Assembly: GCA_019058245.1 (NCBI GenBank)
Contig: JAHPZJ010000013.1
Coordinates: 169,166-233,165 of the forward strand
Length of the DNA stretch: 64,000 nucleotides
Reading direction: 5' to 3'
Source: Promethearchaeota archaeon
GTDB lineage: Archaea; Asgardarchaeota; Lokiarchaeia; Sigyniarchaeales; SOKP01
The position numbers were made by a program, and so were the translations under genes. Within the stretch, counting starts at the first letter, position 1. Each line of letters begins with the position of its first letter. Shown here one piece after another: positions 10,905 through 25,513 of the stretch. The notes under the pieces are model-generated. The model searched no databases. It saw only the letters and a list, made by a program, of their open reading frames with translations, and had not been told where the DNA came from.

Positions 10905-11141
10905 TTATTTTACAGCTTCAAAATAAATATACCATTGTTCATCATCATCAATGAATTCTGTTCCCAAATGTTTATGTTTAGTTTTTGCTAAATCACGTGG
11001 AACAGATTCACTTGCCGGTTTGTAATCTGTTATTACTTTTAAAACAGTTCCTGGTCTCATTTTCATGAGTTGTTTTTTGGTTTTTAAAGCAGGAACAGGA
11101 CATACCGACCCGCAGACATTTAATTCCATATCATATTTCAT
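10905..11141 (-). CDS. tusA: TusA/SirA family sulfur carrier (copy 2, last gene of operon)
   Basis: 78 aa, GSVCPVP motif, GTVLKVITD. Confidence 0.88.
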   Translation of the reverse strand: MKYDMELNVCGSVCPVPALKTKKQLMKMRPGTVLKVITDYKPASESVPRDLAKTKHKHLGTEFIDDDEQWYIYFEAVK

Positions 11142-11181
11142 TTTATTTACCTCATTACATTATTATTTTAATTTTTTAATT

Positions 11182-13650
11182 TTAATCACATATAATCGAA
11201 AATATTGGTTCCTCCATCTTAGGTTCAGATTTCATCTCTAATTCCATTAATTGAACTAAACGGAGTGCTTCATACCTTGCTTTCTTAGGATCGAGACCTG
11301 TTTGGTTTACGATCTCTGTAATAGTACTAGGACCTTGAAGTGATATATAGTTTAAGACTTGTTGTCTTGGAGTTTTTTCAAATTTCATCAATTCACGTTT
11401 AGTTTTCAGGTTAATAGCATCTTTCAAAGCTTCCTCGTCAACTTTTCCTTGTTCGAATAAACCTTTTTTAATAGCATCTTCAACAAGCTTTTTGCCTCGT
11501 TCTGTCCATACTAACACTGTAGTATAGCCTTCTTTCGAACCTACCTCACCAGCAGTAAGATCTGAATATATGGCAGGGAAATCTTGACAATGAGAACAGA
11601 AATGATTACAACTTAGACATCTTCGAGCTTCTTGTAAAGCCATTTCTTCATTAAACATCTGATCAATTTCATCAAAATTCCAATTAATCTCTTCAGTTGC
11701 TGCGTCTAAAGTTTCTGGTTTCAGAGAATAATCTTTTGGAGGTTTCTTAGGGCCTGTAAAAAATGATTTATCTATCTTATATCTTCCTTCCATCAAATTC
11801 TCTCCCTTTAAATATCTATCAATAGAAATTGCTGCTTCTTTTCCATGAGCAATTGCAGCAATAGCTACAGCTTTAGAATTACTAATAATATCTCCACCAG
11901 CAAAAACTCCAGGAATATTAGTTTCAAACGTTATTTCATTTACTTTAATTCTATTTCGCTCTTTTTCTAATTCATTATTTGTTGCAACATCTATCTGTTC
12001 GAAATCTACGGCCTGACCGACTGCTATTACAATGGAATCAACAATTATTTTATAATCCGATCCTTCAATTTTATTTAATGGTCTCCTTCCATTCTTATCG
12101 GGATTACCCCATTCAATATTATAACAATTTAAAACTAATTTTTCATCTCTATCCTGAGTAATTTTAGAAGTGGAAGTCGTGAAGTGAAAATTTATAAACT
12201 CCATTTCATTTTCAGGAATATCTCTTAAGACCAATTCAAGTTGTTCTTTTGACATGATATCAACAAGATGAACTTTTTCAGCACCTAGTCTAAGAGCCGT
12301 TTGAGCAACATCAACTGCAACTGCCCCTCCTCCAATTATGCCTAAAGTTTTACCTTTAAATTCTTCTTTATTTTCCCAGTATCGATATTTTCTATCCATC
12401 AGGAAATGAATTGCCACATGCACATTTGGTAAATTTTCACCTTCTAAGTGTAAAGTACGAGGTTTATATTGTCCAGTAGCAATAAATATAGCCTCAAATC
12501 CTTCATTATTCAAATCTTTAATAGTCATCTCAGGACCCAATGGTTTATTTAGTTTTACTTCGACACCAGAATCTATGATTCTACCTACATCATAATCTAG
12601 TACATAATTAGGTAATCTAAATTGTGGTACACCAAATCTTAGCATTCCTCCAATTTGATCTGTCTTTTCAAATATTGTAGGGGCATAACCCTTTCTCCTT
12701 AAAAAATATGCCGCTGTTAATCCCGCTGGTCCGGATCCAATAATTGCTATTTTTTTAGCATTTTTAGGTAATTTGGCGTTTACTTTTGCTCTATTTTTAG
12801 CACTTTCAATTTCCCATTCAGTAACAAATTTTTTTAATTCACGAATCGCAACAGGATGATCATCTCCAATTAATGTACAACCATGTTCACACTCATTTGT
12901 ACAAATTCTTCCACATATAGAGGGAAGTGGATTGTTTTCTCTAATTAAGTCTACAGCATCTTGATATTTGCCTTGACGTATTAATGAAATATAGCCTTGA
13001 GCATTAACACCAGAAGGACAGCCATTGCAACATGGAGAACAAACTAAGCCTTTATCAGTTTGTTCTGTTCTCATTTGGGAACTACAAAATAAACCAATTT
13101 TTAAAATTTCTCTATTCATTTCTTCTTCAAGATCAGCAGCTCCACGCATTTCACATGGTACACCTACAATACCAATTGGATCAAATGTTTTCCCTGTAAG
13201 TTCTACTAATCGTTTTAGGACACCAGATCTACCATAAATAACACCAGCTTTTTGGATTACTTCATTAGGATCTGACACAATCTCGGCTGCAGGCTTCTCA
13301 TCTTCTTCTTGAACCATTACAACCTCTTTAATAGATTTACTTCCTAACAATTCTTTAACAAAAGTAGTTACAAATCCTCCACTTGAAGCTTTCTTTAAAA
13401 TATCTGGATCTTTACTTCTTAACGAATAAATCGCAAAGGGTTGCTCCTTTTTAAATTTTTTCTGGATTACTTGAGGACAATTTTGATAACATTTTCCACA
13501 ATCTTGCCCATCTCTTTCTAATATACAATAGTCTTTTAAAGTAGGACGTCTTAGATCCATTTCAATATGTTTACATGAACCAGCACATAATCCACATCCT
13601 TGACATAGACCGGCATCTATAATTTCTTGTCTTAATAATTCAAAACTCAT
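11182..13650 (-). CDS. Mosaic oxidoreductase: 2x[4Fe-4S] + FrhB/FdhB-like domains with an inserted GltD/NfnB-type FAD/NAD(P)H module + C-terminal wHTH-like segment
   Basis: CQGCGLC/CGKCYQNCP; FrhB motifs SSGGFVT, VGVPCE, IGLFC; inserted CPSG..CGRIC..CEHGC, GSGPAGL, GGGAVAVD, FAGGD, EARRCLSC; then the FrhB C-terminus resumes with CSHCQDF..DLTAG..GYTTVLVWTERG. Confidence 0.8.
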   Translation of the reverse strand: MSFELLRQEIIDAGLCQGCGLCAGSCKHIEMDLRRPTLKDYCILERDGQDCGKCYQNCPQVIQKKFKKEQPFAIYSLRSKDPDILKKASSGGFVTTFVKELLGSKSIKEVVMVQEEDEKPAAEIVSDPNEVIQKAGVIYGRSGVLKRLVELTGKTFDPIGIVGVPCEMRGAADLEEEMNREILKIGLFCSSQMRTEQTDKGLVCSPCCNGCPSGVNAQGYISLIRQGKYQDAVDLIRENNPLPSICGRICTNECEHGCTLIGDDHPVAIRELKKFVTEWEIESAKNRAKVNAKLPKNAKKIAIIGSGPAGLTAAYFLRRKGYAPTIFEKTDQIGGMLRFGVPQFRLPNYVLDYDVGRIIDSGVEVKLNKPLGPEMTIKDLNNEGFEAIFIATGQYKPRTLHLEGENLPNVHVAIHFLMDRKYRYWENKEEFKGKTLGIIGGGAVAVDVAQTALRLGAEKVHLVDIMSKEQLELVLRDIPENEMEFINFHFTTSTSKITQDRDEKLVLNCYNIEWGNPDKNGRRPLNKIEGSDYKIIVDSIVIAVGQAVDFEQIDVATNNELEKERNRIKVNEITFETNIPGVFAGGDIISNSKAVAIAAIAHGKEAAISIDRYLKGENLMEGRYKIDKSFFTGPKKPPKDYSLKPETLDAATEEINWNFDEIDQMFNEEMALQEARRCLSCNHFCSHCQDFPAIYSDLTAGEVGSKEGYTTVLVWTERGKKLVEDAIKKGLFEQGKVDEEALKDAINLKTKRELMKFEKTPRQQVLNYISLQGPSTITEIVNQTGLDPKKARYEALRLVQLMELEMKSEPKMEEPIFSIICD

Positions 13651-14888
13651 ACATATCCCTCTTTAATTTTAATTTTTTTTACAATACCAATTGGATCAAT
13701 TGTAAATTCAATTGAACCATTCTTATATGTTCCTTCGATCACTTCAAAAGGGTGTGCCTTATATTCTTCAAAGTCATCATTCTCATCAATTTGCGACCTA
13801 AATCCTCCATAAGATAAATTAGATAAATTCATATTTCCAGCAATTTTTCGAATTTCTTCAGTGATTTTCTTATATTGTTCTGGATCTTTACTCTGAATTG
13901 CTTTTTGAAGTGCATTTTCCAGTTTTAGTAATTGATTTCGATAATTTTTCGTTTTTTCACTTACTTTAATATTATTAGCTTCCTCATAAGTTTCAATTAT
14001 TTTTAGAGTCAATGAGATTGAATGATCTCCTCCTAATAACCCAGAAATCAGAGGCAACTCTTCAATAAGTCTTCCAGTAAAAACATCCTCTAATAAATTT
14101 CCATTTGAAGGAATTCGACCTTTTGGCAATCCTGATGTAGGTAAAGTAAATCTAAAGAAATTACCTACAATATCAGGCAAACTTGCAGTTATATCATCAT
14201 CTTCATCAGCTAATTTATCAGTTGCTCCCTTTTCAGAATGTTCAGTCGCAACTTCAATATTTCCCATAAGAGTTCCAAACATTCCCAACATTCTGATTCC
14301 AGAACGTTCTATTATTGGTTTACAACCTCTACATGGAGCATTATAGTCAATACACCTTTCTTTACATTCTTTTGAAACAAATCCATTGCAAAGATACCCA
14401 AGATCATTGAAACATGTCTCGTTATCCTCTAACTCAATTTGTCGTTTTAACTCATCTAAATAATCACATGTTTTTCGTCTTTCGCATACAATACAGAGAT
14501 TTTGTAATTTTGGGAGTTCATTATCTTCAATCTCAAATTTCAGTTCCTCAATTTCCCCTAAACAACCATTAATATTAATTGTATCTTCGATAAAATTCTT
14601 TAATGGAGATACATCATGACCTTTTTGATTAGCCAGAGCAAAAATACCTCCTGATGTAGCACAATTTCCATAAGCAATTACTCTTTCTGAATTTGCTTTT
14701 ATCTTATTTAGGGTTTCTTTATTCTTTGAAAGTAAAAATCCAGTAATTATTGATATATCGGTCTTTTGTTCTTTCCAATTTTGAGGATCTTGTATAAATT
14801 CTATGTTATATTTGGATTCTCCTTTTAGAAGAATCGTCTCATTAAAGCATTTATTACATCCATTAAACTGGAATATTCTAACATCCAT
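13647..14888 (-). CDS. MvhG/FrhG-like [NiFe]-hydrogenase small-subunit homolog with C-terminal extension
   Basis: GCNKC, YGNCATSGG, INGC proximal-cluster motifs; CIVC..CF..GYLCNG..C..C..PCRGC medial/distal cluster motifs. Confidence 0.75.
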   Translation of the reverse strand: MDVRIFQFNGCNKCFNETILLKGESKYNIEFIQDPQNWKEQKTDISIITGFLLSKNKETLNKIKANSERVIAYGNCATSGGIFALANQKGHDVSPLKNFIEDTININGCLGEIEELKFEIEDNELPKLQNLCIVCERRKTCDYLDELKRQIELEDNETCFNDLGYLCNGFVSKECKERCIDYNAPCRGCKPIIERSGIRMLGMFGTLMGNIEVATEHSEKGATDKLADEDDDITASLPDIVGNFFRFTLPTSGLPKGRIPSNGNLLEDVFTGRLIEELPLISGLLGGDHSISLTLKIIETYEEANNIKVSEKTKNYRNQLLKLENALQKAIQSKDPEQYKKITEEIRKIAGNMNLSNLSYGGFRSQIDENDDFEEYKAHPFEVIEGTYKNGSIEFTIDPIGIVKKIKIKEGYV

Positions 14889-15330
14889 CTTTGAAAGTCC
14901 CCTCCTCTCTAATTGCAGTTGCTAATCGTTCTACAATATCTTCAAAGTCTCCGACTGCTGTTTCTCCCTCTGCAGCTCTCGAAGTATATTGATTAACAAA
15001 CTGATCACTATAACCTAACTCCTTAAATAATTTTTTCATTAATTTTATTCTATGCATGGATAAAATATTCCCATTAAAGAAATGACATGCACCTAAACAA
15101 CAACCAACACAAGCAACTGCATCAGCTCCATTGTCTAAAGCGTCCATAATCTGAATAGGACCAACTTGACCTGTACATTGGACTCGAACTATTCGAATTG
15201 CAGGATTATATGCCATTCGAGCAACTCCTGCAGTGTTTGCTGAACCTTGTCCGCATTCATTACACATAAAAACTACAATATTTTCCATCTTTTCCAATAC
15301 TTCTGGTTCAATATATTCACATTCACTCAT
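14878..15330 (-). CDS. mvhD: MvhD-like [2Fe-2S] subunit
   Basis: FMCNEC, RVQCTG, GADAV..GC..GACH. Start set at ATG 15330, which follows GGAGGAGGTG and overlaps the hdrA stop (track start 15345). Confidence 0.85.
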   Translation of the reverse strand: MSECEYIEPEVLEKMENIVVFMCNECGQGSANTAGVARMAYNPAIRIVRVQCTGQVGPIQIMDALDNGADAVACVGCCLGACHFFNGNILSMHRIKLMKKLFKELGYSDQFVNQYTSRAAEGETAVGDFEDIVERLATAIREEGTFKDGC

Positions 15331-17359
15331 TTTCGCATATAGCACCTCCTCCTGAAATTGCGATTATTTCATCTAATAGTTGATCATCGCTAAAATTTAA
15401 TAATTGAATTGCTCCTGTAGGACATACAGGCATACACATACCGCACGATTTGCAAGCAACTTCATTTATCTTAGGTGTCCCATCATTATTTATTTCTATC
15501 GCCGCTGGTGCACAAACAGTCTTACATAAACCACATCTAACGCATAATTCATAATCTACTGAAGGAATTAACATCTCTTTTTCAATATATCCTTTAACCA
15601 ATGGAGCAGCAGCTATTGCAGCAGCATTACCTGCTTGAGCAACACTTTCAGAAATATCTTTAGGACCTTGAATTGCTCCCGCTAAAAATATTCCTCCTTT
15701 ACTGCTTAAAGTTGGATTCATCTTAATGTGGAATTCTTTTAAAAATCCTTCTTTTGAGCGTAGAACCTGTAGTTTTGATCCTAACGGACCGATACCTTCG
15801 GGTGGAACCATTGCAGCTGATAGTACAACCATATCTGCTTTTAACTTTAAAGGAGTTTGACTTAAAGTATCTTCAACAATTACTCTCAGATTCCCAGAAA
15901 TTGGATCTCTTACTATTTCGGAAGGACGTCCTCTAATAAATCTTACTCCAATTTCCTGTGCAGATTTATATAATTCCTCAAAATTCAATCCAGGTGTCCT
16001 TATATCAATATAACAAATAGTAACATCCGAATCTGGATACATTTCTTTTACAATCCTTGCATTTTTAATTGCGAATTTGCAGCAAACTCCTGTACAATAT
16101 TGATTCCCTACTTGATCGTTTCTACTTCCTACACATTGTATCATTACGATACTTTTGGGAATTTTTCCATCAGAAAGACGTAAAACTTGACTGTTAGTGA
16201 GAGAACCAGGAGCTAACATCCTTTCTAATTGGAGTTGTGTTATAACATCTTCATACCCCTCTTGACCATAATGGTATGCCTCAATCTCTGAAGGGTCATA
16301 CTCGTCATAACCAGCCGCTACAACAATAGAACCAACTTTAAAAGTTTTAGTTTCTGTTTGCATTGTAAAATCTACTGCTTGTACGGGACAAACATTAATA
16401 CATGTATTACATTCTATACAACTCTTTTTATCTCTCATATATGTGGCGGGAATTGCTTGTGGATATGCTTTATAAATTGCATTTCTCATTGACATTCCAC
16501 TATCCCATTCACTAGGTACTTCAACAGGACAATGTAGGGCACATTCACCGCAAGAAGTACAATTATCTTTAACATATCTTGGTTTTATTTCAACCTCTAC
16601 TTCAAAATTACCCATTGAACCCTCTACACTCTTAACTTGAGCATTAGTATAAAGTTCTATTAATGGATGATTAGCTACTCCATTAGTTAGTGGAGAAATA
16701 CTACATTGTGGACATTCCAATGTTGGAAAAGTTTTATTTAATTGTGTCATATGTCCTCCGATTGTAGACAATTTTTCTATTAAATAAACAGGAATTCCTA
16801 ACTCTGCTAAATCATATGATGCACGAAGCCCTGCAATGCCAGCACCAATAACTAATGCAGCTTTCGTTGTAGGAATTCTCCGTGTCTCAACATCTTTTAA
16901 CTTTCTTGCCCTATTTACTCCAGCTTCTACTAACCTCATTGCTTTATTGGTTGCTTTATCTTTCTCTTTTTGATGTACCCAACTATTAAATTCTCTAATA
17001 TTTACTTGTTGATGTCTATGTCTATTAAGTCCCATTTCTTCTATTGCTTTAGCAAAAGTCTTTCCATGTTGGTTTTTTGAGCATGAAGCCACCACTGTTC
17101 TATTAACATCTAATTTTTCAATTGAATCTTTAAGCATTTGAACTCCCGGTTTTGAACACATAAACATATAATGTTCAGCTTTAATCACATTAGGTAAATC
17201 TCTAGCATAATCTGCTACTTTAGCAACATCAACAGTTCCTGCGATATTATGCCCACAATGACATACAAAAACTCCTATTCTAGGTTCTTCTTCTTGTTTA
17301 TTTTTATCTTTTTTGCTTATAACGTTTGATTCAGTTATTTTTTCATCTTTTACGGTCAT
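15323..17359 (-). CDS. hdrA: Heterodisulfide reductase subunit A
   Basis: RIGVFVCHCG.NIAG, NIRE..SWVH, GAGIAG, KTFPTLECPQC, IQCVGSR..YCTGVCC, GPKDI, inserted and C-terminal ferredoxin motifs. Confidence 0.95.
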   Translation of the reverse strand: MTVKDEKITESNVISKKDKNKQEEEPRIGVFVCHCGHNIAGTVDVAKVADYARDLPNVIKAEHYMFMCSKPGVQMLKDSIEKLDVNRTVVASCSKNQHGKTFAKAIEEMGLNRHRHQQVNIREFNSWVHQKEKDKATNKAMRLVEAGVNRARKLKDVETRRIPTTKAALVIGAGIAGLRASYDLAELGIPVYLIEKLSTIGGHMTQLNKTFPTLECPQCSISPLTNGVANHPLIELYTNAQVKSVEGSMGNFEVEVEIKPRYVKDNCTSCGECALHCPVEVPSEWDSGMSMRNAIYKAYPQAIPATYMRDKKSCIECNTCINVCPVQAVDFTMQTETKTFKVGSIVVAAGYDEYDPSEIEAYHYGQEGYEDVITQLQLERMLAPGSLTNSQVLRLSDGKIPKSIVMIQCVGSRNDQVGNQYCTGVCCKFAIKNARIVKEMYPDSDVTICYIDIRTPGLNFEELYKSAQEIGVRFIRGRPSEIVRDPISGNLRVIVEDTLSQTPLKLKADMVVLSAAMVPPEGIGPLGSKLQVLRSKEGFLKEFHIKMNPTLSSKGGIFLAGAIQGPKDISESVAQAGNAAAIAAAPLVKGYIEKEMLIPSVDYELCVRCGLCKTVCAPAAIEINNDGTPKINEVACKSCGMCMPVCPTGAIQLLNFSDDQLLDEIIAISGGGAICENE

Positions 17360-18277
17360 TTAAGCAACCTCCTCTTCTTTAGTCAATTCTTCTCCCCCAA
17401 AAATAAAATCTCGTCCCATTAATTGATATTGAAGACCAATAAATTCTTGGTCCATTCCCATACAATAGGCAACAAGCTGGGAGATATGAATTACAGGATA
17501 ATCATAATTACAGCTTTTATTTTTATTTAAATAATCTTGCCCTGTCTCAAATTGTAAATGACAAAATGGACAGATATCCAATATTATATCTGGTTTTACC
17601 TCATCGATATTTTTCATTTTTTCTGCAAATATAGTCATACTTGCATTGCCATCGTAAGCTTTTACTCCTCCACCTGCACCACAACAAGTAAGTTGTTCTT
17701 TAAATCGTACAGATTCGATTCCTAATGCTTCAACAAAATCTTCGATAATTGTTGGACCTTCAGAACTTTCAATTTCTCTAATTCTCGTTGGCTTTAAGAA
17801 ATGGCAACCATAATGAATCGCAGCTTTAACATTTACTTTCCTTACTATGTAATCTTCAATCCCCCAAGGTCCAATTTCATATCCTAAAACTTCAGCTATA
17901 TGACGTACGTTAATCGTACCTTTAAATTCATAGTCTCCAAGTAATTTAAGTTTCTTATTGACCATTTCACGATGTTCTTCGTTTTGTTTAAGATGTTTAT
18001 TTACTTCTTGGAGTGTACCAAAGCATCCATTACAAACTGTTAAAATATCAGCATCCAATTTTTCTGCAATACATAAATTTCTTGCTGCTGCCACCATCCA
18101 ATCAAATTTATTAAAAGAACGGAAAACTCCTGGAGCAGGGCAACAAGTTGCTCTTTCCATATCTAAGAGTTCATATCCTAATTTTTCCATGACAAATTTT
18201 GTTGATTTCTCGATAGCAGGATATCGATTTGGCATTATACACCCTAAAAAGAATGCAAATGTGTTTTCTTTAACCAT
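17360..18277 (-). CDS. hdrB: Heterodisulfide reductase subunit B
   Basis: FLGC, CCPAPG, CNGC, HYGCH, CCGAGGG, CPFCHLQF (two CCG domains). Confidence 0.95.
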   Translation of the reverse strand: MVKENTFAFFLGCIMPNRYPAIEKSTKFVMEKLGYELLDMERATCCPAPGVFRSFNKFDWMVAAARNLCIAEKLDADILTVCNGCFGTLQEVNKHLKQNEEHREMVNKKLKLLGDYEFKGTINVRHIAEVLGYEIGPWGIEDYIVRKVNVKAAIHYGCHFLKPTRIREIESSEGPTIIEDFVEALGIESVRFKEQLTCCGAGGGVKAYDGNASMTIFAEKMKNIDEVKPDIILDICPFCHLQFETGQDYLNKNKSCNYDYPVIHISQLVAYCMGMDQEFIGLQYQLMGRDFIFGGEELTKEEEVA

Positions 18278-18279
18278 TT

Positions 18280-18837
18280 TTATGACTCCTCCTCTTCTTT
18301 TTTCTCCTCCTTAACTGGAGGTAAATCGAACATATATTCTTCAATCTTCTTTAAATCTTTATCATCACCCTCTTGTTTAAATTTAAACGCAGTAGGGGGT
18401 AATTCTTCTAATCCTAATTCGACTCGTCGTTTTCTTACCTCATCATTTATTGGTACAGCATGTCCAAAATTCTTCAAGTATCCTACGACAGCTCTATGAT
18501 TAGGAGAAATATTGCCTAATTTAGTCGCATAATTCCTTAATTCCATAATTACATCGGTAGGTCTTACATCACGTGGACATCGTTCATAACATTGATAACA
18601 TGTCGTACAAAGCCATATATCTGGATCTTTTAATACAGATAAATCTCCTAATACAACTTTTCTTATAATTGAACGAGTCTTTAAAGCAGTCCATCTTCCA
18701 CTTTCACAACTTGCCGTACAAGTTCCACACTGGATACACCGCCAAATATTTGATTTTCTTTCAATATTTTTGAAAAATTCTTGATCAAAATCTTCGTCTG
18801 TTTTATATTCTCTTGCTTGTTCTTCTACATCAGACGT
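18280..18837 (-). CDS. hdrC: Heterodisulfide reductase subunit C (185 aa, apparent ACG start)
   Basis: The track ORF (18280-18546) is only the C-terminal half. The frame stays open 97 codons upstream through CIQCGTCTASC and IWLCTTCYQCYERCPR to ACG at 18837, which follows AAGGTGA-TGATAA (in-frame TAA immediately before). Confidence 0.9.
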   Translation of the reverse strand, partial: TSDVEEQAREYKTDEDFDQEFFKNIERKSNIWRCIQCGTCTASCESGRWTALKTRSIIRKVVLGDLSVLKDPDIWLCTTCYQCYERCPRDVRPTDVIMELRNYATKLGNISPNHRAVVGYLKNFGHAVPINDEVRKRRVELGLEELPPTAFKFKQEGDDKDLKKIEEYMFDLPPVKEEKKEEEES

Positions 18838-18896
18838 TTATCATCACCTTTTTTAATATAAAATATAAAAAAAATTTTTTTTTGTTAATTTTTAAA

Positions 18897-19331
18897 TTAT
18901 AATGAAACTATTCTGCCACCATTACTCATTTCTAAAAATGAAGCAGCACCAACAGGATCTTCAACCCAATCAAGTAAATCTTCTCTCTTAATCCCCATTA
19001 ATTCCATTGTCATTTGACATGGATATAATTTCATATTTCCGTTATCAACAGCATCTTTAATCATTGCCCATGGATCCTCAATTCCAAATTTTTTCATTCT
19101 TTTCTTGAACATTTTTGCTGCCATACCTTTCATTGGAGTAGGCATTCCAGCAACTTTTGGTTTAAATTTCTTTTTTAAAAGATTTAATCCCCAAAAAGTA
19201 AAGAAAAAATTCATTTTAGTATCCATAGCATCACCTGTTGTTCCAAGGATCATCATCATTGCGAACTTTTCGAATGATTTGTCCTTTACAATAAAATTTA
19301 TTGTTTCAGCATCTTCTGCCATATATACCAC
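18897..19331 (-). CDS. DsrE2/DsrE-like family sulfur-transfer protein
   Basis: FFFTFWGL, YPCQMTMELMG, VGAASFL. Likely true start is ATG 19322 after GGTGG. Confidence 0.85.
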   Translation of the reverse strand: MVYMAEDAETINFIVKDKSFEKFAMMMILGTTGDAMDTKMNFFFTFWGLNLLKKKFKPKVAGMPTPMKGMAAKMFKKRMKKFGIEDPWAMIKDAVDNGNMKLYPCQMTMELMGIKREDLLDWVEDPVGAASFLEMSNGGRIVSL

Positions 19332-19442
19332 CTTTTTTTTTTTTTTTTTTTAAAAATTCCTTTTTTTTGTTTAATATTGTAAATTTTCTGGTTTTACCCA
19401 GAACTTATCAAAAAATTTTTTGATTTTTATTTTTTCATCTTA

Positions 19443-19784
19443 CTACATCCAGGATATTACTTTTGGTGTAGCATCAATAATATCTATTAGATCCTCATAT
19501 TCTATAGATTTAATTTTGCCATGTATGTATTCTGGATCTATACCTCGAGCTTTCATGTCTGATTTCATAGCAAATACGGCTACATCTAAACTGAGGAGTT
19601 CTTCCATTTCTGTTTGTATCTTTCCCTTTGTTGTTATGCCTATTATGCCATCATGAATTAAAACTAATCCAAGCTTTGAATTTTTTTTAATTTGACTTTT
19701 CAAAATAGGTAATAACCTCTGTAATTGATTCCCTGTTAATCCACTGAATCCAAACAAATAAATCATATCAAGATTTTCTGTCAT
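19443..19784 (-). CDS. DsrH/TusB family protein
   Basis: VLIHDGI, DMKARGI, IEYEDLIDII..VISW. Confidence 0.8.
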   Translation of the reverse strand: MTENLDMIYLFGFSGLTGNQLQRLLPILKSQIKKNSKLGLVLIHDGIIGITTKGKIQTEMEELLSLDVAVFAMKSDMKARGIDPEYIHGKIKSIEYEDLIDIIDATPKVISWM

Positions 19785-19800
19785 CTTTTTTTATCCCCCT

Positions 19801-20169
19801 TTAATATCTAAAGCATGTACTTGCATTAGCAATTAAATCTGTTAATTCATCATATCCAATAATTTTCAAATTTTCATAGTCAATCATATCAGCTTTAGTT
19901 AATCCTGCATCAATTAAAGCAGATTCAATAATATATACTTCTAAATCAGATAAATCAGCCATCTCTAATACTTCAGCTAAAGGGTCCATTCCTACAGCTT
20001 CAGGGTTACAATTTTTATTGAATAAATAAACAGCATCACCCATAAACACAATTTTACAGTCAACAAATTCTCCTAGAGCAGTAAATCCTGATCCAATCCT
20101 AATAGCCTCAACTGCAGAATTTCTGCCAATTGGTGATTGATCGCTTATTATTACCACAGATTCTACCAT
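19801..20169 (-). CDS. DsrF/TusC family protein
   Basis: SPIG...EAIR, VFMGDAVY; lies between dsrE and dsrH. Confidence 0.75.
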   Translation of the reverse strand: MVESVVIISDQSPIGRNSAVEAIRIGSGFTALGEFVDCKIVFMGDAVYLFNKNCNPEAVGMDPLAEVLEMADLSDLEVYIIESALIDAGLTKADMIDYENLKIIGYDELTDLIANASTCFRY

Positions 20170-20174
20170 AATTA

Positions 20175-20543
20175 TTAACCTCCCGCTCCAAATACAATCA
20201 ATTTATCAGCATAAATTACCCAATTTGAGAAGTCTCCCAAACCATCTTCAGTAGCACCTTCAATAAATTCTGGTTCTTTTAGCCCTGTTATACTAACCCA
20301 TGTACTACACCCTGATATGGGAATTTTGTTATCATTAGAAAATTTCTCAATTTTCGCTGGGATATTTCTTATTGTATTTCCACAACTAATCTCCTTCTTA
20401 AGGTTATAAACACCAGTCCCAAAGAAAAATATACCCGCTATCTCATGCCCCTTTCTTATTGCAGCTTTTCCTATTTCTATCAGAGAATCTACAGCTTGAT
20501 ATTTGTAAGGTTCCGTGCTAATAAAGAAAACATATTTAGACAT
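20175..20543 (-). CDS. DsrE/TusD family sulfurtransferase
   Basis: EPY, GHEIAGIFFFGTGVY, conserved Cys in GCSTW, GLG..ADKLIVF. Confidence 0.82.
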   Translation of the reverse strand: MSKYVFFISTEPYKYQAVDSLIEIGKAAIRKGHEIAGIFFFGTGVYNLKKEISCGNTIRNIPAKIEKFSNDNKIPISGCSTWVSITGLKEPEFIEGATEDGLGDFSNWVIYADKLIVFGAGG

Positions 20544-20572
20544 ATTAATATCCTTACTCCGTATAATGCGTT

Positions 20573-20806
20573 TTAAGCCTTTTTAATGACAAAAATTAAA
20601 TTTCCATTGTCTTCTCGAAGTTCTACTAATTCGTCACCGCTTTTATTGAGAAGCGCTGGAATGTCCTTTTTAGCCCCTACATCATCTGCGATTACTTCTA
20701 TAACCTCTCCAGAAGTCAAATTTCTTAATTCCTTTTTTGTTTTCAAAACCGGCATTGGACATTTTAAGCCTGTATAATTATATGTTTTAACAGCCATTTT
20801 TTTCAC
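20573..20806 (-). CDS. tusA: TusA/SirA family sulfur carrier (copy 1, first gene of operon)
   Basis: GLKCPMP, GEVIEVIADD..AKKDIP. Confidence 0.92.
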   Translation of the reverse strand: MKKMAVKTYNYTGLKCPMPVLKTKKELRNLTSGEVIEVIADDVGAKKDIPALLNKSGDELVELREDNGNLIFVIKKA

Positions 20807-20839
20807 TTTTTTTAGTTTTTTTATTTATTTTTTTTTGTT

Positions 20840-20962
20840 ATGATATCATTTTTGATTATGAATGATAGTCATTATAGATCAAAAATATAATATACTATTT
20901 AAATAATAGTTTTTTTTTCTATAATCATATCATTTATTAATAAATAAAACTATATGATCATA
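20840..20962. promoter_or_regulatory. Candidate operator sites in the divergent tusA/lrp promoter region
   Basis: Three ATGA...TCAT palindromes: ATGATATCAT (20840-20849), AATGA-TAG-TCATT (20861-20873), TATGATCATA (20953-20962). Confidence 0.35.
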
Positions 20963-21099
20963 AGTTAGTAGTAAAAAAAATTATATATTAAAACTACGAT
21001 ATTAAAAATAGAACATATTACTTTTTAATGAAAGTAAGAAACTTATAAATTATAAACAGTTATAGCAGAACTTGAAAAATTACTAATAGGATTGCTTTT

Positions 21100-21567
21100 A
21101 TGGTATCAACAAATGGAACTCTTGATGAGATAGATCGACAAATTCTTGAGTTATTACAAGATGATGCAAAATTAACTATTAGAGAAATTGCTCATCAAAC
21201 AAAGAAGAGTGCTACTGCTATAAGAGCACGTATTCAACGACTTGAGAAAGAATTGATAAAAAAATATGTAGCGCTAATCGATTGCCGTCAATTAGGATAT
21301 CGTGAAATGGTAATGGCATCACTGAGAGTAAATGCAACAAATCCATTAGAGGACGTTAAAAACGAAATTGAAAAGATGGAAAAAATAAAATATGCCTATG
21401 TTGTCACAGGAGAGTATCCTTTATTTATTATGGCAAAATGTTTAGATCATTCAGATTCTATGGGTCTTATAGAAACACTTCGCAACCTTCCTGGAGTTGA
21501 GGAAGTTAAAACTGAGATTGTGTTAGACCGAATTAAAGAAGATCATTCTATTATTATCCCTGAATAA
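21100..21567 (+). CDS. Lrp/AsnC family transcriptional regulator
   Basis: LDEIDRQILELLQDDAK HTH; C-terminal RAM domain VTGEY..LRNLPGVEEVKTEIVL. Confidence 0.95.
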   Translation: MVSTNGTLDEIDRQILELLQDDAKLTIREIAHQTKKSATAIRARIQRLEKELIKKYVALIDCRQLGYREMVMASLRVNATNPLEDVKNEIEKMEKIKYAYVVTGEYPLFIMAKCLDHSDSMGLIETLRNLPGVEEVKTEIVLDRIKEDHSIIIPE

Positions 21568-21691: not shown

Positions 21692-24112
21692 TTAATCAAA
21701 ACTCTTAGAAGTCAATTCAATTTCATAATTAGAATTTTCCCATTTATCTGGGTTTAACCAATGGAAGGTAAAATTCAATTTTACTGGTTTATCCATATCT
21801 TTTGTTGGTAAATCTACATAATAGATACCTAATCCTGTATCAATTGTTTTAGACTCTTGAAAGGTATTCCAAGCATTAATGGACCATCGAACAATAGCTT
21901 CAGCTCTCAATTCAATTCTCAAAATTTTTCCTAGACTCATTTGAGAACATTTATGATTATATTTCCAGATTCTTAGATTTGATGGATGATTTTCTTCAAC
22001 ATATCTTAGTTTAGTTTGAAGTGGCATATCAAAAATTTTGTTATCTTCTAATGATCGCACTAGTTTTACATATTCAGAATGCGCCCAGACCAAGGGCATA
22101 GCGGAACCTGATGGATGCCCATTAAATAGATGTTTTTGAGGGATATCATCTGCATCCCAAATTTGTTCGGGAATAAGTCCTCCCGAACCAACCTGCGCTT
22201 CTATCACTTTTGAAAGCTTTCTTGCCGTATCAATATCGCCTTTCGCTAATTCATAGTGAGCACGTTCACCTGCTAAAAGTGGCCACCCCCTACCAATTCC
22301 AGTACCATCGAAAGGATCCCCATTTGAATGTTCTCCATAACCATCTTTATTATAACGATGCCATGTAGGACCAGTAGAAGTTGTTGTTTTTAACATAGAA
22401 TCAATAACTTTCACTGTGTTGACTATTCTTATATCATCAGCAGCACGTAATCCAAATCGTACTAAAGCTAAAGCATCGGGACTGACGATATATTCAAAAA
22501 GAGCTTTACTTTCACCAGGAGGTCTATTTTTAATTGGAACATAACCATCCTTAGGAGAAGTGGCATCCGGAAGATCAGGAGGACTTACTCGAACATAATA
22601 ACCTTCGACATTTAGCCTTTTGGCGAGATGAGAATTCTTAACATAAGTCCATTTTTCGATATTGGAATTCCAATTGTCTGCTAATTCTGTTAAATATTTC
22701 GCAATTTGCAGTTCTCCTGCTTCTCTAGCAAATTCCGATGCAATGAGTAAAGCAGCAATTTCTACTGCTAAAGTGAAGGGAGAATAACCTGAGTCTTCTT
22801 CCCATCGATCCTCTTGAGAGACAGGACCGTTACATGCTATATAACTCACGGCTTTCTTTATAGTAGGCCAAATATTGATCTCTTTAAGTAGCCCATTTTC
22901 TTTTAAAGCATTTGCTAGTAATATTGGAAAAGCAGTTTCATCCATTTGTATTCCATGCCAATATTCGGTGCCGTCTAACCACATATTTTGAGGCCAGTAT
23001 CCATCTTTATTTTGAGTACTCATTAAATAAATCATAATTTGTAAAGCTTCTAAATTAGCTCCTACTGCAAGAAGCCCACCTGCAGTTTCAACAAGATCCC
23101 TAGGCCATACTAAATGATAACCCCCTAAATCATCGTCACCTTTCGCAAATCCCCAAGGAATTGATAAACTCGCTATTGTGCCATCTGAAAAGCGTTTATC
23201 CATGTGAGTCTTTAAAACTACAATACTCAACCTGTAAATATTAAATCCTTTTTCTCCAACATGGCTTAAGTTTCTACAATTTTGCTGAAATTTTAACCAA
23301 GAAGACATATAAGTCTCAATTATTTGATTAATATTGTTATACAAAGTAGCACGAGCAAGTTGTCCTGCTTCTGCTGGATTATTACCAAATGCAATTGCAA
23401 TAATAAAATTTCCCCTACTTACTTTCAAATCAATTTCTCCCGTTATGACAACATTTCCATTTGATGCGTGAGAATAGCGATGCGTTAAAATGTGATTTTT
23501 ATTTATATCTTGCCAACCATCACTTATACCATAATACCCACAGCTCATGTTAGAAAAAGGTGTAGAACATGCTATTGCTAGTACAATATTTTCTCTTTGA
23601 GCAAAAAGCATAGGAACGCCTTTATAATTACCCACCCAGCTATTGTTTCCATAACCAAAGTTTTTAATATGAGGATTTAAAATTGCATAAAGATGATAAT
23701 CATCTAAATTTCCTTTTAAGGGAGTAAACTTTACTTTTAGCAAGAGTACATTCCTTCGAGGATCAGTTAGAATTATTTTTTCTATCATATATCTTCTTTT
23801 ATATGAGGTATTTGTGATCTTATATACCGGTACGCCCTCTTTTAATGTTGAAATCTTATGATCACAGTCAATTCTTTCTTCTTCGAAAAAATCAGTACCA
23901 TCAGAAATAAGAAATTGAAAGTCGCGAATATCAGCTTGATCAATACGAGGATAATATACCTCATCAATTATACCATTAGATAATGTAAACCAAACTAAAC
24001 TTTCATGTGATATTGATGTTCCAACTCCATCTTTTGCACTTGATGTCCAACTGGGTTCTCTTCCAGGGTATCCTGGTGCCTCACCATCATAATTTGTTTC
24101 TATTTGATTAAT
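21692..24112 (-). CDS. Glucoamylase/glucodextranase (GH15 with glucodextranase N-terminal domain)
   Basis: GH15 motifs YHLVWPRD, QMDE, DRWEE, EQIW, PLVWAH. The frame extends 110 codons upstream of the track start (23788) through APGYPGREPSWTSSAKDGVG and VWFT..GIIDEVYYPRID with no ATG/GTG/TTG; ATT at 24112 is proposed as start. Confidence 0.88.
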   Translation of the reverse strand: MNQIETNYDGEAPGYPGREPSWTSSAKDGVGTSISHESLVWFTLSNGIIDEVYYPRIDQADIRDFQFLISDGTDFFEEERIDCDHKISTLKEGVPVYKITNTSYKRRYMIEKIILTDPRRNVLLLKVKFTPLKGNLDDYHLYAILNPHIKNFGYGNNSWVGNYKGVPMLFAQRENIVLAIACSTPFSNMSCGYYGISDGWQDINKNHILTHRYSHASNGNVVITGEIDLKVSRGNFIIAIAFGNNPAEAGQLARATLYNNINQIIETYMSSWLKFQQNCRNLSHVGEKGFNIYRLSIVVLKTHMDKRFSDGTIASLSIPWGFAKGDDDLGGYHLVWPRDLVETAGGLLAVGANLEALQIMIYLMSTQNKDGYWPQNMWLDGTEYWHGIQMDETAFPILLANALKENGLLKEINIWPTIKKAVSYIACNGPVSQEDRWEEDSGYSPFTLAVEIAALLIASEFAREAGELQIAKYLTELADNWNSNIEKWTYVKNSHLAKRLNVEGYYVRVSPPDLPDATSPKDGYVPIKNRPPGESKALFEYIVSPDALALVRFGLRAADDIRIVNTVKVIDSMLKTTTSTGPTWHRYNKDGYGEHSNGDPFDGTGIGRGWPLLAGERAHYELAKGDIDTARKLSKVIEAQVGSGGLIPEQIWDADDIPQKHLFNGHPSGSAMPLVWAHSEYVKLVRSLEDNKIFDMPLQTKLRYVEENHPSNLRIWKYNHKCSQMSLGKILRIELRAEAIVRWSINAWNTFQESKTIDTGLGIYYVDLPTKDMDKPVKLNFTFHWLNPDKWENSNYEIELTSKSFD

Positions 24113-24118
24113 GAAATA

Positions 24119-25513
24119 TCACTTCCCCAATTCTCGTGGATGTTTTCCACCACGCCAATGTTCTTCAATTTCTTCTAGGGTTCTTCCCTTAGTTTCTGGA
24201 ACGTAAACATACGTAAAGATTAATGCCATTATTCCTACAACGGCATAAAACCAAAATGTACCTGAACGTCCTAATAATTGAATTAAAGTTAAAAAAGTTA
24301 GCGCAATGATCAAGTTAGATCCCCAGTTAGCTTCTGTTACGATGCTCATTGCACGTCCTCTAACTTTCAGAGGGTATATCTCAGATATTAATAACCAAAA
24401 TACTGGTCCCAATCCAATAGCGAAAAAGGCGACATATGCTATTAAACTAATTGCTGCTAACGTTCCTAATTGATTTAATAAACTTGGTAAAAAGAATACA
24501 ATCCCTAGCATTATAAGCATCCCACTCATGCCAATTAAACCGAGTAATAATAATTTACGCCGTCCGACGCGATCCAACAAAAATATTGCGACAATAGTAA
24601 AGCCCACATTCACAATTCCAACTATGATTGTAGCAAAGATAGCCGCTGAAGCTGATTGAAATCCTGCAAATTCAAAAATAGTTGGGGCATAATAAATCAC
24701 GGTGTTAATTCCAGTTACTTGTTGGAAAATCGCCAATGATATACCCACAATCATTGCAGGTCTTATTAAAGGACTAAGCAGAGCTTTTCTTTCTCCTTTT
24801 TGCTTATCGAGGCTAGTAATAATTTCATCGAGTTCATTATTGATATTATTTGTCCTTCGAATTTCAATCAATGTAGAACGCGCTTTATTTACCTTTCCTT
24901 TATTAACTAGCCATCGTGGGCTGTTTGGCATGAAGATCATTGCTATTAATAATATAAGAGCAGGAATAGCTGCTAAACCAAGCATATAACGCCACCCACT
25001 TATAGGTGTAAAGGCATAATCCACCAAGTAAGATATAACAATTCCTATAGTAATAAATAATTGATTTAAAGACACTAATGATCCTCTAATTTTTGGTGGA
25101 GACATTTCAGAGATATATAGTGGAGCAATAAAGGATGCCATCCCTATAGCAATTCCTACAATTACTCTTCCTATGATCAGGAATATTATATCGATTGTTA
25201 ATGAGGTCCCTATTGCACCACCAGCAAATATAATTGCGGCTATAATAATCATTTTTCTTCGTCCATAACGATCAGCTAACGATCCCCCTATAAATGCTCC
25301 GATTATTGCTCCAATTAATACAGCACTAATAACTAATTCCTGTAAAAATGGTAAAAGAGTATATTCTTGCTTAATAAATAGAATAGCCCCAGATATAACA
25401 CCAGTATCATAACCAAATAACATTCCGCTAATTCCTGATACCATCGCAATAATATAAATAAAAGTATTATTCGTAGATTTGTGAAATAACATCTTAGTGA
25501 TTATTTTTCTCAT
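24119..25513 (-). CDS. Sugar porter family MFS transporter
   Basis: FGYDTGVISGA, DRYGRR, YISE..P..RG, QQVTGIN..YY, SEIYP..RG, PETKG. Confidence 0.95.
   Translation of the reverse strand: MRKIITKMLFHKSTNNTFIYIIAMVSGISGMLFGYDTGVISGAILFIKQEYTLLPFLQELVISAVLIGAIIGAFIGGSLADRYGRRKMIIIAAIIFAGGAIGTSLTIDIIFLIIGRVIVGIAIGMASFIAPLYISEMSPPKIRGSLVSLNQLFITIGIVISYLVDYAFTPISGWRYMLGLAAIPALILLIAMIFMPNSPRWLVNKGKVNKARSTLIEIRRTNNINNELDEIITSLDKQKGERKALLSPLIRPAMIVGISLAIFQQVTGINTVIYYAPTIFEFAGFQSASAAIFATIIVGIVNVGFTIVAIFLLDRVGRRKLLLLGLIGMSGMLIMLGIVFFLPSLLNQLGTLAAISLIAYVAFFAIGLGPVFWLLISEIYPLKVRGRAMSIVTEANWGSNLIIALTFLTLIQLLGRSGTFWFYAVVGIMALIFTYVYVPETKGRTLEEIEEHWRGGKHPRELGK

Follow-up and report, generated by a model that had tools for sequence, protein, structure and literature searches.

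A heterodisulfide reductase gene cluster bracketed by TusA and DsrE-family sulfur-carrier genes in Asgard archaea

In the FlxABCD-HdrABC and DsrMK/DsrC systems of sulfate reducers, NAD(P)H donates electrons both to ferredoxin and, through a CCG-domain protein of the heterodisulfide reductase (Hdr) type, to a sulfur bond borne by a protein. Flx-Hdr is also mentioned in PMC7015854. In Methanothermobacter under nickel limitation, ElpABC-HdrABC (PDB 8RVU) uses a truncated FdhA without cofactor as the scaffold that holds an FrhB-type F420H2 oxidase on Hdr (PMC12350162), and a sulfur-oxidising Hdr-like system with TusA, DsrE3 and LbpA, known as sHdr, is outlined in PMC6067878 and in Protein Sci 33:e5014, as cited in PMC12054007. 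Ever since hdr genes turned up in sulfate reducers, acetogens and Asgard archaea, it has been asked what HdrABC reduces where coenzymes M and B are lacking. Asgard metabolic models routinely read such genes as a MvhADG-HdrABC hydrogenase, and surveys of HdrA in methane-metabolising archaea do not mention TusA. Here we describe, in a 64,000-nucleotide stretch of a Promethearchaeota genome (the window, whose positions are used below), a cluster in which hdrCBA, mvhD, an mvhG-like gene and an frhB-gltD fusion are flanked by six genes for sulfur carriers.

Our reading of this cluster, to which we give a probability of roughly 45%, is that it encodes an H2-independent, bifurcating Hdr driven by NAD(P)H or F420H2, whose HdrB would reduce sulfane sulfur or an S-S bond held on TusA/DsrE carriers and yield reduced ferredoxin. 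The reading draws on the list of parts, on intact cofactor ligands, on the loss of the nickel-iron site from the hydrogenase-like component, on the invariant cysteines of the carriers and on the conserved linkage of the genes. The electron donor and the direction of the reaction we infer, and the action of HdrB on carrier-bound sulfur is suggested by synteny and by the invariant cysteines.

Gene order and its conservation

The locus lies on contig C13 of a 3.09-Mb genome of 31 contigs that is 76% complete, and the window is AT-rich (about 28% G+C). Genes were called from a listing of open reading frames (ORFs) together with Pfam and NCBIfam scans of the window proteins, and the cluster proteins matched their Pfam families with E-values of 1e-10 to 1e-37 and beyond. 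A first-pass annotation of the DNA had described twelve co-directional genes and a divergent lrp, and each of these was recovered in its place, the twelve filling 10905-20806 of the minus strand. In minus-strand order they are tusA, dsrE, dsrF, dsrH, a dsrE2-type gene, hdrC, hdrB, hdrA, mvhD, the mvhG-like gene, frhB with a nested gltD, and a second tusA, as follows.

21100-21567, plus strand: Lrp/AsnC-family regulator (Pfam HTH_AsnC-type 3.8e-14, AsnC_trans_reg 3.8e-10)
20807-21099, no strand: lrp-tusA intergenic region, putative control region (conserved blocks, palindromes)
20573-20806, minus strand: TusA1, canonical single-cysteine carrier (Pfam TusA 1.3e-24)
20175-20543, minus strand: DsrE/TusD-type subunit (Pfam DsrE 3.2e-14)
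19801-20169, minus strand: DsrF/TusC-type subunit (Pfam DsrE 2.2e-13)
19443-19784, minus strand: DsrH/TusB-type subunit (Pfam DsrH 1.5e-10)
18897-19331, minus strand: DsrE2/DsrE3-type single-cysteine carrier of PF13686 (Pfam DrsE_2 3.2e-24)
18283-18837, minus strand: HdrC, two 4Fe-4S clusters, ACG start (TIGR03290)
17360-18277, minus strand: HdrB, two CCG domains (non-cubane 4Fe-4S), predicted catalytic S-S reductase (Pfam CCG 4e-37, two stretches)
15323-17359, minus strand: HdrA, full-length flavoprotein of the bifurcating type (match to 5ODC_A)
14878-15345, minus strand: MvhD, [2Fe-2S] connector (Pfam FlpD 9.5e-32)
13647-14888, minus strand: MvhG small subunit fused to a cysteine-free relic of a [NiFe] large subunit, below MvhG::relic (alignment, hhalign, structure model)
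11182-13650, minus strand: FrhB/FdhB-type flavoprotein with nested GltD/NfnB module and winged-helix tail, below FrhB::GltD (Pfam, PDB matches)
10905-11141, minus strand: TusA2 (Pfam TusA 1.4e-18)

A profile search with the MvhG-like protein over contigs from one genome per species returned 64 loci, all from metagenome-assembled genomes (MAGs) of Asgard archaea (Promethearchaeota). Synteny was scored by tblastn of the window proteins against these loci, with counts taken over those that have enough flank. All 37 loci with upstream flank carry tusA-dsrE-dsrF-dsrH-dsrE2-hdrC-hdrB-hdrA-mvhD in this same order with lrp divergent; on the other side, the terminal tusA (tusA2) is present in 52 of the 53 loci with downstream flank and the FrhB::GltD fusion in 50 of them. 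Median identity to the window proteins is 93% for HdrC, 91% for TusA2, 90% for MvhD, 89% for HdrB and 86% for HdrA, and 63-73% for DsrE, DsrF and DsrH. TusA2 is thus the most conserved of the carriers, and the strongest constraint falls on the redox core and this terminal TusA. The first-pass annotation would have been contradicted had the tus/dsrE and hdr genes parted company elsewhere; they stay linked in 37 of 37 Asgard loci and through four rearrangements, one of them outside the Asgard archaea.

The rearranged layouts all keep TusA and DsrE-family genes beside hdrCBA-mvhD-mvhG. In Thorarchaeota (family f9, so named in NCBI protein records) the order is hdrCBA-mvhD-mvhG-frhB-tusA-dsrEFH with lrp divergent from hdrC, the FrhB protein has 347 residues and lacks the GltD insert, and there is no DsrE2 in the cluster. 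In Candidatus (Ca.) Lokiarchaeum ossiferum, whose MvhG::relic gene is NEF87_002001 (100% match), and in a second complete Lokiarchaeia genome, G332, no gene of the set is missing and lrp stands between dsrE2 and hdrC. The same position of lrp is seen in G213, a complete genome with a single [NiFe] hydrogenase, the number also reported for P. syntrophicum MK-D1, where tusA2, a DsrE-family gene, dsrE2 and dsrFH surround the Hdr core. The fourth layout, on a metagenome contig of 58% G+C (L083), reads dsrE-like, dsrE-like, hdrCBA, mvhD, mvhG::relic, frhB (394 residues, with winged helix), tusA; this contig, which carries a class I LysRS, an archaeal ThrRS editing domain and a Fae-Hps fusion, is archaeal and non-Asgard. 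From what these clusters retain, the constant core is hdrCBA-mvhD-mvhG::relic-frhB-tusA, with a winged helix-turn-helix on FrhB, plus at least one DsrE-family gene, and the GltD insertion, DsrEFH and DsrE2 are lineage-specific elaborations.

Variants were also seen downstream. Loci L011, L014 (11239-14174) and L044 have an FrhB of 380 residues without the GltD insert and, after the terminal tusA, an extra hdrC-like/hdrB-like pair (26-36% identity) followed by a radical SAM gene on the other strand. Three loci, L017 (14383-15470), L020 (17329-18430) and L046 (14041-15140), have a divergent second copy of dsrEFH (30-48% identity) immediately downstream of the terminal tusA, on the other strand.

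Within the window cluster, the junctions from hdrC to frhB are tight, with gaps of 2 and 0 nucleotides (nt) followed by overlaps of 23, 11 and 4 nt. Larger spacers separate dsrH from dsrE2 (111 nt) and dsrE2 from hdrC (59 nt, containing a run of eight T), and because of these the carrier genes and the hdr genes may form two transcription units rather than one. In the spacer between lrp and tusA, an alignment of nine orthologous spacers brought out conserved blocks such as TTTATAGAAAAAAAAACTATA..TTTAAATAT and TTATAATTTTTTTCACTAC; the spacer also contains several imperfect palindromes. The alignment of orthologous upstream regions also favours the ATG at 20797 as the likely start of TusA1, three codons past the GTG called at 20806.

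The start of hdrC is unusual. The gene has no ATG, GTG or TTG start and opens at an ACG (18835-18837, minus strand) that follows an in-frame TGA-TGA-TAA and is preceded by the Shine-Dalgarno motif AAGGTGA. Of the orthologous loci, 16 start at ACG, 25 at ATG and 2 at ATA, in every case with a GGTGAT Shine-Dalgarno motif upstream (the ACG loci are L007, L011, L027, L030, L032-L034, L036, L038, L039, L041, L045, L047, L059, L060 and L075). That 16 species-level genomes have ACG at this codon rules out a broken gene or an assembly error; it is a conserved near-cognate start codon. Beyond lrp, the stretch 21692-25513 holds a GH15 glucoamylase gene (Glucodextran_N plus Glyco_hydro_15), which directly adjoins lrp, and then an ORF of 464 residues.

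The redox core and its probable electron input

HdrA (678 residues) aligns over residues 24-665 with residues 2-646 of 5ODC_A (E 1.2e-190), and has the full length and the five domains of the HdrA of methanogen-type HdrABC. The HdrA of sHdr (6TJR), in comparison, covers residues 343-587 only, the flavin core (E 1.5e-40). Both HdrB (369.9 bits against TIGR03288, cut-off 345) and HdrC (176.6 bits against TIGR03290, cut-off 160) exceed the cut-offs for equivalogs of the CoB-CoM heterodisulfide reductase. Matches of HdrB to the methanogen proteins 9SFI_C and 5ODC_B reach about 1e-91. The motifs round its two CCG clusters are almost the same as theirs, and its ten CCG cysteines are all invariant among orthologues, as are the cluster cysteines of MvhD in 76 of 76 hits. 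Ten further HdrB paralogues in the genome share at most 44% identity with the HdrB of the cluster. By these comparisons the Hdr is of the methanogen type and not of the sHdr type, as the first-pass annotation had it.

Such a resemblance is the natural starting point for a different account, in which HdrB, as in methanogens, reduces a low-molecular-weight (hetero)disulfide or a polysulfide-thiol adduct. TusA and the DsrE proteins would then not be substrates but would serve the making, repair or sulfur supply of that thiol or of the unusual Fe-S clusters of the complex. The equivalog scores and cluster motifs speak for it, and so do the possibility of separate carrier and hdr transcripts and the L083 MvhG::relic protein, which is 69% identical to proteins assigned in NCBI records to MAGs of Methermicoccaceae, a methanogen family. 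Against it, a search of the 76%-complete genome gave no McrA, and ComA was found neither there nor in more than 2 of 41 family genomes (0 of 24 of high quality), the cysteate route to coenzyme M not having been searched for. No gene for the biosynthesis of a thiol cofactor is conserved in the cluster, and TusA2 keeps its place as the closing gene of the hdr unit, with a median identity (91%) above that of HdrA or HdrB, which is unusual for an accessory biosynthetic factor. On balance we consider a small-molecule substrate unlikely, and keep reduction of carrier-bound sulfur as the preferred reading.

HdrA, MvhD and DsrE-like proteins appear in reviews among the selenoproteins of Lokiarchaeota. 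Here the idea was dropped, as about 75 orthologous loci show no in-frame TGA where a cysteine is encoded.

The MvhG-like protein consists of two parts. In the MvhG part, all 36 aligned sequences share the twelve Fe-S cysteines of a hydrogenase small subunit, so that, together with the [2Fe-2S] connector MvhD, the cluster has the three-cluster small subunit and connector of group 3c MvhAGD hydrogenases. The C-terminal extension of about 150 residues has no Pfam match. A protein atlas gave a weak lead to NiFeSe_Hases (score 0.84), which hhalign and VIA-align later confirmed. BLASTP of the protein against the two large subunits of the genome hit one and the same segment in each, across the L1 nickel-binding motif, and hhalign of the extension against seven large subunits gave a probability of 94.3% (E 1e-7), with GLLGGD in place of RxCGxC. 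In an AlphaFold 2 model built on the 36-sequence alignment (mean predicted local distance difference test score 87, predicted template modelling score 0.89), residues 1-259 superimpose on MvhG 5ODC_E (VIA-align Z 20.0, root-mean-square deviation 2.8 A over 242 residues), and residues 262-413 match the large subunits FrhA 6QGT_A (Z 13.3 over 151 residues) and 4KL8_L (Z 12.7) as well as homologues from complex I and MBS. This second part contains no cysteine at all, and hence neither the RxCGxC nor the DPCxxC nickel-iron ligands of a group 3c large subunit.

The protein is thus an unbroken electron wire with a dead, miniaturised [NiFe] large subunit as its cap and, because the remnant is free of cysteine, the complex is predicted to be unable to use H2. 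The H2-independence put forward in the first-pass annotation is borne out in this relic. The family is tiny, with 17 representatives at E < 1e-30 among 1.8 billion cluster representatives, and its non-Asgard branch comprises four clusters only. Two real [NiFe] hydrogenase clusters with small subunits of their own lie about 78 and 92 kb away on contig C13:

C13:84000-98000 (L080): HdrA-MvhD fusion of 849 residues, MvhG of 276 residues, large subunit of 433 residues
C13:318000-332000 (L079): small-subunit-like gene of 441 residues, large subunit of 435 residues, hdrC/hdrB-like genes

The probable electron input of the complex is FrhB::GltD (822 residues), in which a complete NfnB/GltD unit (Fer4_20 plus an FAD/NAD(P)H domain) is nested inside an FrhB fold. 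Pfam places FrhB_FdhB_N at residues 75-146, Fer4_20 at 190-283, Pyr_redox_2 at 300-603 and FrhB_FdhB_C at 657-739, between an N-terminal ferredoxin domain and a C-terminal winged-helix tail (window 11185-11400). The matches in the PDB are to NfnA 9N5U (1e-94), NfnB 4YLF_B (4e-72), GltD (1e-49) and the F420H2-oxidising N-domain of Fsr, 7NP8 (1e-24), in support of the NAD(P)H/F420-type input proposed in the first pass. The second Rossmann strand of the GltD module ends in Asp (KVHLVD), which under the general rules for Rossmann folds hints at NADH rather than NADPH. F420H2 is plausible as a further donor because each of 41 family genomes encodes the F420 ligase CofE, and F420H2 would be the only obvious donor where the GltD insert is absent, as in the FrhB orthologues of L014, L069 and L083. 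The FrhB gene of G213 keeps only a 142-residue remnant with the ferredoxin domain and the winged helix (L068, 8865-9293). Because these two pieces alone survive there, they may dock on the complex, or the tail may be regulatory.

Sulfur carriers and the proposed reaction

Each carrier other than DsrH has a conserved cysteine. Cys16 in the CPxP motif of TusA1 is invariant in 40 of 40 orthologues. DsrE matches Allochromatium vinosum DsrE (2HY5_A, 4e-9) with the active-site cysteine aligned, and this residue, Cys79, is invariant in 44 of 44; with DsrF and DsrH it makes up three adjacent paralogous subunits, as in DsrEFH/TusBCD. DsrF reaches 3.6e-9 with the NCBIfam model TusC/DsrF, which is under the cut-off, and has Cys38 conserved in 46 of 46 aligned orthologues, and DsrH matches NCBIfam TusB/DsrH at 1.1e-12 and is without any cysteine. 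The DsrE2-type carrier, encoded directly upstream of hdrC, matches the DsrE-like protein 2QS7 of Sulfolobus (1e-17, cysteine aligned); its Cys105 is invariant in 51 of 51, and with 60 bits against the NCBIfam DsrE2 cut-off of 210 it is no equivalog of that family.

TusA2, whose Cys14 is invariant in 64 of 64 sequences and which has a weak, sub-threshold match to YedF in NCBIfam, is the sole carrier that never leaves the hdr unit, and for this reason is most likely the direct partner of HdrB. In 56 of the 64 sequences, from Lokiarchaeia-type loci only, it has an extra cysteine, Cys10, four residues before the catalytic one (CG[SL]VCP). This CGxxCP pair opens another possibility, namely that the substrate is a different protein dithiol or disulfide, either a lipoyl protein as in sHdr or a Cys10-Cys14 disulfide or trisulfide of TusA2 acting as an analogue of DsrC. 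Work on protein-borne sulfur by both sHdr and DsrK lends it some weight. Cys10 is, however, replaced by Arg in Thorarchaeota and in L083 and by Thr in two Lokiarchaeia loci (L044 and L050), for which reason a universal second redox cysteine was rejected. As for a lipoyl protein, the genome has two GcvH genes, one that belongs to a glycine-cleavage operon and one orphan with unrelated neighbours. No dsrE or hdr gene lies close to either of them, and the lipoate hypothesis was rejected for this genome. We regard a dithiol of this kind as improbable.

The known acceptors and enzymes of sulfur metabolism were looked for as well. The window holds no dsrAB, dsrC, lbpA or hydrogenase large subunit, in agreement with the first pass. 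DsrC/TusE (PF04358) was found neither in the genome nor in any of 71 family genomes, 36 of them of high quality, in a search with a positive E. coli control. The siroheme sulfite reductase family NIR_SIR was not found in the 76%-complete genome, nor was an importer of the YeeE/TsuA type; genes resembling cysteine desulfurases are present.

A third TusA (89 residues; C13:70123-70329, in L095 4070-6181) is encoded with a ThiF-family E1-like protein on one side and, on the other, a ThiI/PP-loop protein that has an NFACT-R_2 domain, and two cysteine desulfurase-like genes lie 4-10 kb from it. Together the three probably form a biosynthetic thiolation module; biosynthetic sulfur transfer would then have a TusA of its own, so that the TusA proteins of the cluster would not be needed for that role.

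Claims of novelty have to be trimmed. The first-pass annotation put the system forward as the best candidate for an undescribed one, which is slightly overstated: a preprint on the Asgard archaeon Nerearchaeum draws Hdr as reducing TusA/DsrE-bound persulfides in one figure legend, with a hydrogenase as donor (10.1101/2025.07.22.663070). It contains no analysis of a cluster; in the open-access literature, a search for TusA/DsrE with Hdr and MvhD in Asgard archaea returned nothing relevant beyond it.

The same preprint proposes reductive assimilation through TusA/DsrE persulfides and Hdr in an Asgard archaeon without sulfite reductase, which speaks for a rival account in which the cluster serves sulfur assimilation or mobilisation and not energy, releasing sulfide for biosynthesis from thiosulfate, sulfane sulfur or cysteine persulfide, or in reverse loading the carriers from sulfide. 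The apparent lack of NIR_SIR in the present genome fits this, as do the cysteine desulfurase-like genes and the regulator that is always adjacent, of the Lrp type that is typically responsive to amino acids. Against this stands the machinery itself: a complete HdrA of the bifurcating type, with its two ferredoxin domains in place and an NAD(P)H/F420 input of its own, seems elaborate for an assimilatory trickle; the sediment habitats are moreover sulfidic, and the medium of Ca. L. ossiferum contains sulfide and cysteine. The YeeE/TsuA-type importer that was not found in the 76%-complete genome, the separate TusA-ThiF-ThiI module and the absence of the cluster from about half of the close relatives point the same way. 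We rate this account as unlikely.

Under our preferred reading, the reduction of carrier-bound sulfur, the complex would be soluble and its high-potential acceptor would be an S-S bond on dedicated sulfur carriers, not the heterodisulfide of coenzymes M and B (CoM-S-S-CoB). FrhB::GltD would oxidise NAD(P)H and/or F420H2; one electron would pass uphill through the ferredoxin domains of HdrA to ferredoxin, and the other via HdrC to HdrB with its two non-cubane clusters. HdrB would then cleave what TusA2 presents to it, be it a persulfide, a trisulfide or a mixed disulfide. The sulfur would be loaded by way of TusA1, DsrEFH and the DsrE2-type carrier, and would come from environmental sulfane sulfur or from cysteine desulfuration. 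The products would be H2S, regenerated carrier thiols and reduced ferredoxin, which could serve the Wood-Ljungdahl pathway or the production of H2 or formate; the acetyl-CoA synthase CdhC, a ferredoxin consumer, is present in the genome. Expression of the cluster would be controlled by Lrp.

Several points weigh against this reading. The sulfane/sulfide couple lies at about -270 mV, far below CoM-S-S-CoB at about -140 mV, and because of this low potential a bifurcation from NAD(P)H to ferredoxin would run near equilibrium. TusA holds its cysteine on a compact domain and lacks the flexible arm found in DsrC and in lipoyl proteins. HdrB is so like a CoM-S-S-CoB reductase that by its sequence a small heterodisulfide may fit at least as well as a protein persulfide. 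The T-run and spacers before hdrC, and the presence of lrp at that point in family f2, suggest separate transcripts for carriers and hdr genes, and the loss of the FrhB core in G213 would leave no evident donor there. Finally, the distribution is patchy: the MvhG-like marker occurs in 43 of 301 Asgard genomes, in 33 of 68 of the same family and in 22 of 90 of high quality, so the cluster is common but accessory.

If the reading is true, sulfane sulfur would be an electron sink and a site of energy coupling in the archaea closest to eukaryotes, with a bearing on hydrogen-sulfur syntrophy models of eukaryogenesis. We would go further only as a speculation that we hold doubtful, that carrier-bound sulfane sulfur is the Asgard counterpart of methanogen CoM-S-S-CoB, an exergonic acceptor that lets HdrABC make ferredoxin for the Wood-Ljungdahl pathway in a sulfur-dependent, H2-independent form of energy conservation. 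Because the Hdr of the cluster is the closest relative of the methanogen enzyme in its genome, persulfide reduction could then be an ancestral or a parallel function of HdrABC. In any case, no hydrogenase goes with at least one widespread Asgard Hdr. Its input is apparently of the NAD(P)H/F420 type, and several independent rearrangements have left it linked to sulfur carriers. The persulfides of TusA2, DsrE2 and DsrEFH can be named as concrete candidate substrates, and the cluster occurs in the cultured Ca. L. ossiferum, for which proteome and transcriptome data sets exist, among them PRIDE PXD047696 and BioProject PRJNA1054498.

Comparison with known systems

Like sHdr, the cluster ties an Hdr-type enzyme genetically to TusA and DsrE-family carriers; its two tusA genes and its PF13686 carrier, a homologue of 2QS7, correspond to the linked TusA and DsrE3-type carriers of sHdr. 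Unlike sHdr, which has a short HdrA, duplicated HdrB/HdrC pairs (hdrC1B1/hdrC2B2) and an obligatory lipoate-binding protein with its lipoate ligase, it has a single hdrC-hdrB pair in the window, a full-length HdrA and, within the cluster, neither an LbpA/GcvH-like gene nor a lipoate ligase. Moreover, sHdr oxidises sulfur, whereas here the full bifurcating HdrA, the MvhD and the reductant input point to reduction.

The Flx-Hdr and DsrMK-DsrC systems offer a similar chemistry with other components: the cluster has no Flx subunits, DsrC/TusE is missing from the family genomes searched, and the carriers are TusA, DsrEFH and DsrE2. With the TusA-TusBCD-TusE and DsrEFH-DsrC relays it shares the adjacent tusA-dsrE-dsrF-dsrH genes and the conserved active-site cysteine of DsrE. 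It differs from them in its cysteine-free DsrH, in the DsrC/TusE acceptor that was not found and in its linkage to a redox enzyme instead of to tRNA thiolation or DsrAB.

To methanogen MvhAGD-HdrABC the cluster is related by HdrA, HdrB, HdrC, MvhD and MvhG, all homologous and with all cofactor ligands, and by the hdrCBA-mvhD-mvhG neighbourhood, which is common to both. In place of a functional MvhA it has a cysteine-free relic of 150 residues fused to MvhG, with no H2 chemistry predicted, and FrhB::GltD replaces MvhA as the apparent input; six sulfur-carrier genes flank the complex, and Mcr and ComA were not found in the 76%-complete genome.

The closest parallel is offered by ElpABC-HdrABC (PMC12350162). 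Its scaffold is a truncated FdhA (ElpA), whereas the present cluster has no FdhA-like gene and uses MvhG with the MvhA relic; its acceptor is CoM-S-S-CoB, and it has neither sulfur carriers nor the nested NAD(P)H-binding GltD/NfnB unit found here. The two nevertheless share an architecture in which an FrhB/FdhB-type flavoprotein, encoded together with hdrABC and an MvhD-type connector, would feed Hdr through MvhD from its place on a catalytically dead remnant.

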